From a virus (taxonomy: Duplodnaviria > Heunggongvirae > Uroviricota > Caudoviricetes), in IMG/VR virus record IMGVR_UViG_646311924_000013: a DNA stretch of 38,725 nucleotides. The stretch is one strand, 5' to 3'. A program made the position numbers. Positions 12,001 to 15,000 of the stretch are shown here, in pieces (the stretch's first letter is position 1; each line of letters starts with the position of its first letter).

Positions 12001-15000
12001 ACCAGATGGAAAAAATCACAACAGGTGTGTCATACACCACGTCAGCGGTGGGAACGGGCTACTGGTTCCTGCAGTTGCTGGACAGGGTTTCCCCGTCTCA
12101 GTGGGCGGCAATAGGCGTGCTGGGGAGTCTGCTGTTTGGTCTGCTGACGTACCTGACGAACCTGTATTTCAAAATCAGAGAGGACAGGCGTAAGGCGGCA
12201 CGGGGAGAGTAGGTGATGAACCATGAAGAAATGAATCAGCGCTTCAGTCGTCTGGAAAATGAAATTGCTGAACTGAATAAAAAACTGTCGGCGCTGATGC
12301 CTTCTGAAGATGAAAAAAAACGCCGCGATGAGCAGTTTGCTGCGTTTGACGATTATTGTCGGAAAGTGATGAGCAGAAATCTCGCAGAGTGTTTCAGTAT
12401 TCATAATGATAATTGCAGTGAGCTGGAATGGGTGAACCGCCCCGGAAATCCTGGAGACTAAACTCCCTGAGAAAGAGGTAAACAGGATGACTAAAAATAC
12501 TCGTTTTTCCCCCGAAGTCCGTCAGCGGGCGATTCGTATGGTTCTGGAAAGTCAGGATGAATATGACTCACAGTGGGCGGCAATTTGTTCCATTGCCCCA
12601 AAGATTGGCTGTACGCCGGAGACTCTGCGTGTCTGGGTTCGCCAGCATGAGCGGGATACCGGGGGCGGTGATGGTGGGCTCACCAGCGCTGAACGTCAGC
12701 GTCTGAAAGAGCTGGAACGTGAAAATCGTGAACTGCGCCGCAGTAACGATATCCTTCGCCAGGCTTCCGCTTATTTTGCGAAGGCGGAGTTCGACCGCCT
12801 CTGGAAAAAATGATGCCACTGCTGGATAAGCTGCGTGAGCAGTACGGGGTCGGACCGGTATGCAGCGAACTGCATATTGCCCCGTCAACGTATTACCATT
12901 GTCAGCAACAGCGACATCATCCGGATAAACGCAGTGCCCGTGCGCAGCACGACGACTGGCTGAAGAGAGAGATACAGCGCGTATACGATGAAAATCATCA
13001 GGTGTACGGTGTGCGTAAAGTCTGGCGTCAGTTGTTACGGGAAGGAATCAGGGTGGCCAGATGTACAGTGGCACGTCTCATGGCGGTTATGGGACTTGCC
13101 GGTGTTCTCCGGGGTAAAAAGGTCCGTACGACCATCAGCCGGAAAGCCGTTGCCGCAGGCGACCGCGTAAACCGTCAGTTCGTGGCAGAACGACCTGACC
13201 AGCTGTGGGTGGCTGATTTTACTTACGTCAGCACATGGCAGGGCTTCGTCTATGTGGCGTTTATCATTGATGTGTTTGCCGGATACATCGTGGGGTGGCG
13301 GGTCTCATCGTCTATGGAAACGACATTCGTGCTGGATGCGCTGGAGCAGGCGTTGTGGGCCCGTCGTCCGTCTGGCACCATCCATCACAGCGATAAAGGC
13401 TCTCAGTATGTGTCACTGGCCTATACGGAGCGACTAAAAGAAGCCGGATTACTGGCATCAACAGGGAGTACAGGCGACTCGTATGACAACGCGATGGCTG
13501 AGAGCATCAATGGTCTTTACAAAGCGGAGGTAATACACCGTAAGAGCTGGAAAAACCGTGCAGAAGTGGAACTGGCCACACTAACGTGGGTGGACTGGTA
13601 TAACAATCGACGATTGCTGGGAAGGCTGGGCCATACTCCTCCGGCAGAAGCAGAAAAAGCTTATTATGCTTCCATCGGAAACGATGATCTGGCAGCCTGA
13701 GTTCACAGATAAAACACTCTCCAGGAAACCCGGGGCGGTTCAGGGAGTGTAACCGGCCATCCTTTGTTGTATCCGGTGATGACGGGAAAATCACCATATC
13801 AGAAAATGGAAAAGTAACACTGCCATCGCACCAGCACAGTGAGACGCTCATTGAATTTGCCATTGATTACCTGAAGAACAATAAAAAACAGGGGCTGATG
13901 CAGCGCATTGGTCGTTGCATGGGGTATCTGCAGGTAGCCGCTGAGATTGAAGCGCTGGCCAGTGGTGCTGATAAGGATGCAATTGTGCGGGAGGCTCTTC
14001 TTCGTAATTTTAATACTCCACCCTTTAAAAAAGTGCCGGCTTACTGGCTTCATCCCGGACTGACTTATCTGAAAGTGCGTATTTAGTGGGCCTGGGACAG
14101 CGGCTGAATATTTAATATATCCATGAACGCAAAAATCAGATACGGCCTGTCGGCTGCCGTTCTGGCGCTGATTGGTGCAGGGGCGTCTGCGCCTGAAATC
14201 CTCGACCAGTTTCTGGATGAAAAGGAAGGTAACCACACCACGGCATACCGTGATGGTGCGGGTATCTGGACCATCTGCCGTGGAGCCACCCGGGTGGATG
14301 GTAAGCCTGTTATTCCTGGCATGAAGCTGTCGAAGGGGAAATGCGACCGGGTTAACGCCATTGAGCGTGATAAGGCGCTGGCATGGGTGGAGAAAAACAT
14401 CAAAGTGCCACTGACTGAACCCCAGAAAGCGGGGATCGCGTCATTCTGCCCGTATAACATTGGCCCCGGTAAGTGTTTCCCGTCGACGTTTTATAAACGA
14501 ATTAATGCAGGCGATCGCAGGGGAGCGTGTGAAGCGATTCGCTGGTGGATTAAGGACGGAGGCAGAGACTGCCGTATCCGCTCAAATAATTGCTATGGTC
14601 AGGTATCCCGTCGTGACCAGGAGAGCGCGCTGGCGTGCTGGGGTATCGACAGATAAGCAGAATATTTTGCTGAAAAATGACGTTGGCCAACGCGGACGGA
14701 TAACACGAAATCCTGCGAACTGGCAAAACCTGAGTGAATAAAAGTAAAAACCCCGTTTGTTAGCAGCAGGTGGGGTTTTGTGTTTCCTGACTCCGGAAAA
14801 GTCAAAGGAGAAAGTGTGTTTGATTTTAGCAAACTGATTCGGGAGATTCGAGTGATGGCTGAAAAATTATCCACCTGGAAGTTCATTCTTATCTGGCTGG
14901 TGTTTGTGATTATGGCCTCCGGTTATTTCATCGGTCAGATACGCTGGTGGTGAAATGAACCGCGTACTGTGCGTGGTCATCATTGCCCTGCTGGTGGCCT

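Follow-up and report, generated by a model that had tools for sequence, protein, structure and literature searches.

A mobile small-membrane-protein cassette with a predicted antisense RNA in the late operons of temperate phages

Introduction

Why should the endolysin gene R and the spanin gene Rz of a lambdoid prophage be held apart by some 300 bp, and what might the intervening DNA do? The question is raised by IMG/VR virus record IMGVR_UViG_646311924_000013 (Caudoviricetes), a stretch of 38,725 nucleotides that we refer to here as the window. It is a lambdoid prophage resembling Shiga toxin (Stx) phages, and E. coli O111 genomes, that of strain E2863 for example, match its R–Rz spacer at 100% identity. 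The stop codon of R (14656) and the ATG of Rz (14955) leave a gap of 298 bp, in which a preliminary description had noted a hairpin, an AAGGAG site and a 45-codon open reading frame (ORF) with one transmembrane (TM) segment that ends 1 nt before Rz; all of these are indeed present. That description went on to suggest an extra lysis regulator. We propose instead that the ORF and its leader form a cassette in which a bidirectional terminator and a predicted cis-antisense RNA gate a membrane peptide within phage late operons, a reading that we put at roughly 55% from sequence comparisons.

A small membrane protein gene under purifying selection

The ORF (14816–14953, + strand) begins with GTG at 14816, has its stop codon at 14951–14953 and translates over 45 codons as VFDFSKLIREIRVMAEKLSTWKFILIWLVFVIMASGYFIGQIRWW. 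It matches the profile of phrog_6632 over its full length (E 1.2e-29, residues 1–45 on profile positions 1–45 of 45), and no other known family was matched in Pfam, NCBIfam, PADLOC, PDB sequence profiles or Rfam. The same protein has been deposited as a hypothetical or putative bacteriophage protein (WP_000459345.1; CAH23245.1 of phage CP-1639); in most records the ORF is unannotated, and the Prokaryotic Genome Annotation Pipeline usually omits it. In-frame conservation, on which the preliminary description had let the standing of the ORF depend, is found in 254 copies that we collected from viral, metagenomic and genomic contigs, the genera represented being Escherichia, Salmonella, Citrobacter, Yersinia, Brenneria, Symbiopectobacterium, Providencia and Dryocola. 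For the 52 distinct intact ORF sequences, the median ratio of nonsynonymous to synonymous substitution rates (dN/dS) is 0.16 at a dS of ~1.3. A profile search of 1.84 billion representative proteins returned only 40 relatives, 32–86 aa long and unfused to other domains, all of which have the N-terminal motif xFSK(L/I)IRE(L/I)RxMxE(K/R)LxxW(K/R)F followed by a TM helix, both kept down to ~35% identity. Judged by these comparisons, the ORF is a real gene under purifying selection. The start codon is GTG in 90 of 99 close variants; because most distant relatives have ATG at the equivalent position and residues 3–13 are conserved in them, we take the 45-aa form from GTG 14816 to be correct and not the 32-aa form that would start at an internal ATG (14855).

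Residues ~23–42 are hydrophobic, with a Kyte-Doolittle 19-residue mean of up to 2.13, and the TM helix contains a small-xxx-small motif, G36xxxG40. Beyond it are five residues, QIRWW, which make a polar and aromatic C-terminus. The topology predicted by the positive-inside rule is that of a tail-anchored membrane protein, in which a charged amphipathic N-terminal helix of ~20 residues would be cytoplasmic and, after the single TM helix, the RWW end would lie at the periplasmic face.

It could be argued that such an ORF only feeds ribosomes to Rz by translational coupling and that the peptide has no function. Its stop codon is 1 nt before the Rz ATG, the spacing to the next gene is tight in nearly all contexts, the invariant C-terminal TGGTGGTGA resembles a Shine-Dalgarno (SD) sequence of the next gene, and R and Rz of lambda themselves overlap by ATGA. 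The strong purifying selection, however, acts over the full amino-acid length, the motif and helix persist at the distances given above, and some copies have no downstream gene at all; we therefore find it very improbable that the peptide itself has no function.

Boundaries, contexts and spread of the cassette

When four unrelated contexts were aligned (the window, a Salmonella P22-like phage, an E. fergusonii prophage and phage Rac-SA53), similarity ran only from the A-tract preceding the hairpin to the stop codon of the ORF, and the flanks were unrelated. On this alignment, the unit is a horizontally mobile cassette made up of an A-tract, GC hairpin and T-tract, a linker with the SD, and the ORF. 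In the window, the R-distal spacer (14657–14737, + strand) falls outside the cassette and is common to Stx phages that have ant in place of it; the match of 933W/BP-4795-type phages to the window ends at ~14742–14751, with divergence beyond. As far as the sampled loci indicate, the cassette sits within phage late operons, co-oriented with them and directly upstream of the next late gene, without a coding-strand promoter. The next gene starts 1–15 nt past the ORF stop, and the distance is 1 nt in 194 of 248 copies; the downstream neighbours in this 1-nt tally are Rz-type i-spanins (187), DUF2514-type spanins (6) and a few from three other i-spanin/o-spanin (inner-membrane/outer-membrane) pairs.

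The spacer (297 bp) is widespread. It occurs in part or whole in 214 phage records, mostly of Stx1a-, Stx2a- and Stx2c-converting phages, and in 2070 of 5426 complete E. coli genomes, with at least 80% of it covered in 870.

Is the encoded peptide then a dedicated regulator of lysis, for example an antiholin-like, spanin-modulating or signal-arrest-release (SAR)-endolysin-releasing peptide, placed before Rz to work with the lysis proteins? About 80% of the sampled copies are exactly at the endolysin|i-spanin junction, in a sample that is skewed toward E. coli. This position recurs, 1 nt before the spanin, across Rz, DUF2514 and the three other spanin types; the product is a single-pass membrane protein with G36xxxG40, and the lysis cassette of the window is of the pinholin/SAR-endolysin kind. 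The proposed partners, on the other hand, are not conserved. The holins next to it are of more than one family (class II/S21-like, Phage_holin_2_3 and Phage_holin_8); the upstream endolysins are of at least five kinds, among them the SAR lysozyme, another PF00959 lysozyme, a GH19 enzyme and a 138-aa enzyme; and there are at least five spanin families. Across the sampled loci, holin, endolysin and spanin partners thus vary and none is constant. The ORF has no Pfam or PHROG holin match, and it does not have the build of a spanin, since its TM helix is C-terminal with five residues beyond it, a lipobox is lacking and a complete Rz/Rz1 pair is present separately.

Furthermore, 43 of 248 copies lie far from lysis genes, flanked by baseplate gpV-like and gpW/gp25-like genes in myovirus tails of two types (the copy of Rac-SA53 is in a baseplate operon), and several distant relatives are similarly placed in tail or structural operons. 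One follows the lambda-type tail gene K beside an opposite-strand Bro-N gene, another is found in a podovirus structural operon where it overlaps the next gene by ATGA, and in Brenneria and Symbiopectobacterium genome contigs two copies occur at a prophage end. The R|Rz site also accepts other DNA: related phages have there ant together with a 48-aa TM ORF (phrog_4906), a 60-aa TM ORF (phrog_1115) or combinations of these, K-12 Qin has no insert, and BP-4795/933W-type phages and PhiR12_2 have other inserts or none. Because ant and other unrelated small ORFs are inserted there too, the site looks like an insertion hot spot, and because other inserts share it while copies of the cassette also occur in tail and structural operons, the link of the cassette to lysis genes is frequent and not exclusive. 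The preliminary description had proposed checking for conservation in phage-21-type lysis cassettes; the range of endolysins, spanins and operons does not support the ORF as a component of such cassettes. Its suggestion of an extra lysis regulator holds to the extent that this is a genuine, conserved single-pass membrane protein gene that recurs at the endolysin|i-spanin junction, but not as regards specificity for any holin, endolysin or spanin. Given the copies in baseplate, tail, podovirus and prophage-end sites, a portable late-operon insert fits better than a dedicated antiholin or spanin modulator, which we regard as rather unlikely.

A terminator-like leader without a coding-strand promoter

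The 5′ end of the cassette (14738–14789) is terminator-like on both strands, with an A-tract at 14740–14750, a hairpin core at 14751–14775 and a T-tract at 14776–14785; with A-U pairs included, the + strand hairpin spans 14747–14779 with 15 pairs and is followed by TTTTGTGTTT. The preliminary description had regarded the hairpin as a mere spacer. This view has to be abandoned, as the hairpin belongs to the cassette: at ~35–40 nt before the start codon, a GC-rich hairpin recurs in all but one of 72 distinct leaders and in each of the six distant relatives. Its stem sequences are very different from one leader to another, one outer pair being A-U in 20 cases and G-C in 12 and the inner stems being unlike; the stems thus covary. 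Since there is an A-rich tract 5′ and a T-rich tract 3′ in every case, the hairpin looks like a terminator on both strands, and it is probably the terminator of the antisense RNA predicted below. An integron attC-like role was also considered and dropped, a GC stem with flanking A/T-tracts being of the terminator type.

The linker (14788–14810, + strand) contains a 5-bp hairpin (14788–14792/14800–14804) that abuts the SD, AAGGAG (14805–14810). There are three unrelated linker types, and each folds into a hairpin of ~5 bp with a 7-nt loop, the 3′ arm of which touches or overlaps the SD; the mean z of −1.35 against shuffles lends this moderate support. The T-tract and the SD are separated by ~25–35 nt. 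Coding-strand promoters were sought in all three linker types and inside the hairpin, and no −35/−10 elements were found. With no promoter between T-tract and SD, the + strand would be transcribed only by polymerase that reads through the hairpin.

This arrangement bears on another explanation, namely that the gene is a lysogenic-conversion moron whose peptide is made by the prophage and protects the lysogen, for example by superinfection exclusion as with HK97 gp15. The cassette is mobile and is inserted into lysis and tail operons at sites known as moron hot spots, often beside Bro-N/ant inserts, and many exclusion proteins are small inner-membrane proteins. Expression from a prophage would, however, call for a coding-strand promoter where none is found, a terminator lies directly upstream and the predicted antisense promoter over the ribosome-binding site would point to silencing in lysogens. 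There is also no PADLOC match. We consider a protective function of this kind improbable.

Synonymous constraint and a predicted antisense promoter

If the cassette has no promoter on its coding strand, does it have one on the other? Synonymous divergence (pS) is 0.19 in codons 2–12, 0.50 in codons 13–21 and 0.75 in codons 22–43, a drop of ~4-fold in codons 2–12, and codon pairs for the same amino acid differ in 17% of cases in codons 2–21 versus 53% in codons 22–43. Among the 52 distinct ORFs, Ser5 is AGC in 52/52, Lys6 is AAA in 51/52, Glu10 is GAG in 51/52 (GAA never) and Arg12 is CGA, a rare Arg codon in E. coli, in 52/52, whereas Arg43 is encoded by five different codons; codon 4 ends in T in every ORF. 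Codons 2 and 13 are highly variable (8 and 9 codons, respectively), and their interspersion among the invariant ones indicates that the lineages are old.

Read on the − strand, the invariant synonymous bases form an extended −10 element, TGC-TAAAAT. The predicted σ70 promoter (14823–14851, − strand) has its −10 hexamer, TAAAAT, at 14828–14823, the TGC at 14831–14829 and, after a 17-bp spacer, a −35-like TCGAAT at 14851–14846; this element, TCGAAT or TCGCAA in the family, is the closest to TTG that the Arg codon permits. The TGn is kept in 72/72 distinct close relatives, in which the −10 follows the pattern TA(A/T/G)(A)(A/T)T (TAAAAT, TAATAT or TAAGAT). Six distant relatives have, at the same offset, TGC-TAATAT, TGC-TAAGAT, TGA-TAAACT, TGC-TAATGT, TGA-TATAAT and TGC-TAAAAT; in two distant relatives Ser (AGC) has become Ile (ATC) with the TG still kept, the motif persisting as TGA-TAAACT and TGA-TATAAT despite the altered amino acid, and one distant relative comes from a GC-rich contig. 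The background frequency of the motif at these offsets is 0.58% in 1378 unrelated ORF starts from the same loci. Finally, three non-homologous small TM ORFs with the same hairpin leader have an antisense −10 at +7 to +10 (TGC-TAGACT, TGC-TATTCT and GTT-TATACT), whereas it is absent from small TM ORFs without such a leader. A parallel test of synonymous sites in phrog_1115 yielded no diverged set, all 80 loci being 97–100% identical.

There is a second promoter-like site on the − strand, in the 3′ half of the ORF (14938–14909, CTGACC-18-CATAAT). If active, it would give a longer antisense RNA of ~165–190 nt with the same hairpin end. It is restricted to E. coli-type sequence and, being unconserved outside it, was set aside.

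The predicted antisense RNA and its proposed role

A transcript from the conserved promoter would have its 5′ end at ~14815–14818 and its 3′ end at the hairpin/U-tract at ~14742. The promoter geometry and the hairpin together thus predict a cis-antisense RNA of ~76 nt (14742–14817, − strand, ends approximate; 75–85 nt in relatives), which would span the linker, the SD and the start codon and so form a perfect complement of the translation-initiation region. Lambdoid late operons are transcribed by Q-modified, antiterminating polymerase. In the proposed model, the coding strand would be reached only by read-through late transcription, Q-antiterminated in lambdoid phages, with the hairpin stopping other polymerases, and the antisense RNA would block translation of the peptide in lysogens and set a threshold in late transcription. 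Through the antisense duplex and the 1-nt stop/start spacing, it may also affect Rz or whichever gene lies downstream.

What would need to be held back so tightly? The combination of terminator, antisense RNA, non-ATG start and a build like that of type I toxins suggests that the peptide is membrane-active and harmful if made early. The peptide might help to depolarize the membrane and so trigger lysis, it might be a toxin, or its role might have nothing to do with lysis; any of these is inferred only. In pinholin/SAR-endolysin cassettes, the peptide would most plausibly hasten or secure membrane depolarization and lysis, which is the weakest step of the model.

A number of observations weigh against this proposal, and several of them would fit an account without any antisense promoter, in which the hairpin is a terminator or insulator for the coding strand and the 5′ codons reflect either a feature of the mRNA (its initiation region, an SD-sequestering structure or a protein-binding site) or a 5′ segment inherited from a recent common ancestor. 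First of all, of 45 distinct hairpins the + strand fold is the more stable in 30 and the − strand fold in 10, and the hairpin of the window, owing to three G-U pairs, is much weaker on the − strand (−9.6 kcal/mol versus −15.9 on the + strand); the hairpin may thus serve mainly the coding strand. Second, the −35 element matches at only 3/6 positions, and a simple promoter scan missed the site. Third, nonsynonymous divergence (pN) is lower in the 5′ third together with pS, a 5′ fragment has been found recombined onto a different C-terminus, and the linker is able to pair the SD with a pyrimidine tract downstream of the hairpin; part of the 5′ constraint could be due to mosaic ancestry or to an N-terminal peptide that is itself under strong constraint. 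Fourth, the occurrence in tail operons speaks against a lysis-specific role, and canonical type I loci have a toxin promoter where the cassette has none. Finally, Rfam (15), searched with the window (E up to 10) and 11 related loci, gave nothing for the RNA at or near the gathering score; literature searches on the small RNAs and proteins of lysis cassettes, the peptide sequence in the Sakai small-gene supplements, phrog_6632, the EcOnc and Pas small RNAs (sRNAs) and type I toxins of lambdoid prophages gave nothing on the locus; and the cassette is absent from K-12 Qin and from Sakai Sp10 and Sp15, the prophages for which maps of transcription start sites exist.

The account without an antisense promoter meets difficulties of its own. 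No conserved base pairing of the leader with the coding region, which could be another source of the constraint, was found by RNAalifold. Codon choice near starts is generally A/T-ending and structure-avoiding, whereas rare or GC-ending codons (CGA, AGC and GAG) are among the invariant ones here. Recent shared ancestry does not sit well with the age of the lineages, and the TGnTAnnnT pattern survives both the AGC to ATC change and a shift in host GC content and is also seen, at an unchanged offset, in non-homologous ORFs that have this leader. We judge this account unlikely while giving it real weight, and continue with the gated cassette as the preferred reading.

Comparison with known regulatory and mobile systems

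Among the closest known counterparts is SymR/symE. SymR is reportedly a cis-antisense RNA of ~77 nt with its promoter in the first codons of its target, symE, its start beside the start codon and the SD covered. The RNA predicted here is alike in having its −10 at codons 3–5, a length of ~76–80 nt and an end at a terminator. SymE is a soluble, SOS-induced protein of 113 aa whose gene has a LexA-controlled promoter of its own, whereas the target here is a 45-aa membrane peptide without a promoter of its own, in phage late operons, and the RNA is known from prediction only. In the P22 sar/ant system, a phage antisense RNA of ~69 nt is directed at the ribosome-binding site of ant within an operon, its promoter opposing operon transcription, and limits ant translation. 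The likeness here is in layout only: the target of sar is an antirepressor and the operon is immI, and the Rfam models, among which that of sar is expected, gave no match at our locus.

Type I toxins are characterized by a length below 70 aa, a TM region and a short polar or aromatic C-terminus (Fozo et al. 2010, PMC2887945), and one of them, HokW of hokW-sokW in the Stx2 prophage Sp5, assists phage-induced lysis (PMC8621323). The 45-aa protein shares these features of a small TM peptide, and an antisense RNA over the initiation region, like those of hok/sok, hokW-sokW, ldr/rdl, ibs/sib and zor/orz, is predicted here. It differs from these toxins in having no sequence similarity to them, a tail-anchored arrangement with the TM helix C-terminal and a conserved cytoplasmic amphipathic N-domain. 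The locus differs as well: an independent toxin promoter is absent between terminator and SD in every linker type, the homology of the cassette begins at the terminator, there is no long folded 5′ untranslated region, and the unit is highly mobile and lies inside a late operon beside the next gene. Toxicity, moreover, is only suggested.

Classical morons are expressed in the prophage from a promoter of their own and end in a downstream terminator. As with lambda bor and lom and HK97 gp15, the cassette is an extra gene at recurrent late-gene hot spots, absent from close relatives and with sharp mosaic boundaries and an associated terminator; its terminator, in contrast, is upstream, a sense promoter is absent and an antisense promoter is predicted. 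As one defining feature of each is missing, we describe the cassette as working like type I systems and morons and not as a member of either. With accessory lysis proteins (the antiholins S107 and S21-71, P2 LysA, Mu releasin) it has in common a small membrane protein within a lysis cassette, but it shows no homology to them, has no fixed holin or endolysin partner and is found outside lysis cassettes too. The family itself, phrog_6632, is already catalogued without function, and its entry, although matched over the full length, has no description of leader, terminator or antisense promoter; the regulatory architecture and the spread among late operons appear to be undescribed so far.

A possible wider class of portable leaders and its significance

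Other small ORFs with a single TM segment are arrayed in the R|Rz and baseplate V|W gaps, combined differently from locus to locus. These are phrog_4906 (43–48 aa), phrog_1115 (60 aa) and a ‘MKESS/MPFKNS...(K/R)WW’ family (50–52 aa). Such arrays are seen in PhiR12_2 (L005, 1740–2142), BP-4795 (L006, 3497–3643), phiSTEC1589-Stx1c (L263, 1423–1900), E. fergusonii (L011, 3690–3907) and Dryocola (L023, 2588–3111), the last with a truncated phrog_6632 copy after two other small TM ORFs. Some of the array ORFs are preceded by the same hairpin leader and have the antisense −10 at an identical offset.

We tentatively suggest, with somewhat less than even confidence, that the cassette is one of an unrecognized class of promoter-less, antisense-RNA-gated small-membrane-protein cassettes that spread among the late operons (lysis, baseplate, tail and podovirus structural) of temperate Enterobacterales phages. 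The unrelated families phrog_6632, phrog_1115 and ‘MKESS...KWW’ would then share a portable leader, consisting of the bidirectional terminator, the small hairpin, the SD and an antisense extended −10 at codons 3–5, and the cassettes would act as a thresholded late switch for lysis-tuning or cell-killing peptides, type-I-toxin-like without a toxin promoter of its own.

The cassette is present in many Stx1-, Stx2a- and Stx2c-converting phages, in which the timing of lysis governs the release of toxin and phage. If the reading of a gated cassette is true, an unannotated small RNA and a small protein join the late/lysis programme of these phages, as a variant of known antisense/toxin logic and a compact natural gene that is gated by both antitermination and a cis-antisense RNA. 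It would also provide a signature by which to search for further cassettes: a small TM ORF preceded at ~35 nt by a terminator, with TGnTAnnnT on the strand opposite its codons 3–5.

Neighbouring genes and other features

In the lysis region of the window, a class II (S21-like) holin gene (11997–12212) precedes the SAR-type endolysin R (14123–14656, + strand), which matches Pfam Phage_lysozyme (E 3e-24) and phrog_7, has a hydrophobic N-terminus as read from its translation and is the upstream neighbour of the cassette, outside it. The downstream neighbour is the i-spanin Rz (14955–15422, + strand; Pfam Phage_lysis, E 4e-50), with the o-spanin Rz1 embedded in it (15175–15360, E 2e-21). Between holin and endolysin, an IS629/IS3-family insertion sequence (IS) element at ~12430–13743 (orfA 12487–12813, orfB 12810–13700, ALIL frameshift pseudoknot 12768–12884) is inserted in a gene of which a C-terminal remnant is found at 13898–14086 (phrog_1085/26186) and which strain UTAK-8 shows in its intact arrangement. 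The IS element thus lies between the holin on one side and R, the small ORF and Rz on the other, and may render the prophage lysis-defective.

Rz is followed by a non-coding stretch of 410 bp (15423–15835). Within it and the end of Rz, 15400–15611 has 95% identity to Sakai Sp10 DNA that contains EcOnc11 (homologues EcOnc10 and EcOnc12), and the equivalent of EcOnc11 at ~15496–15544 on the − strand (genome versions may differ slightly in these coordinates) is a candidate sRNA without a name that would be transcribed against the late genes immediately after Rz. EcOnc10–12 are peaks from Hfq crosslinking and analysis of cDNA, lying ~5 kb from AgvB (Tree et al. 2014, Table S2); as RNA of the R–Rz gap they were ruled out, since they map just downstream of Rz. 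PasB, described as ‘inside a phage structural operon’, was also considered as the antisense RNA; its reference phage NC_049945 is not among the 59 cassette-matching phage records.

Bro-N/Ant antirepressor genes recur beside small-ORF cassettes in either orientation: at R|Rz of Stx phages (L006, 2928–3497), after gpW in Rac-SA53 and after gpK in L348, the neighbourhoods concerned also including those of L015 and L004. Either common insertion hot spots or a functional link may lie behind this. One of these records, ‘Actinobacillus phage vB_Apl-pPE4’ (L004, PP818812.1), shows 100% identity with Escherichia phage Rac-SA53 (L264, KU052037.1) across the 231 bp that were compared and has the same neighbour gene order, so that its host assignment looks doubtful.

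Upstream of a nanS-p-like esterase gene (9370–11316) are a tRNA (8822–8881), STnc100 (8967–9159, + strand) and the anti-sRNA AgvB (9161–9222, − strand). This region (8822–9222) is the classical Stx/moron site downstream of Q, here without stx genes. A second, partial IS629/IS3-family copy occupies positions 1–888 of the window, with its ALIL pseudoknot at 1–72.

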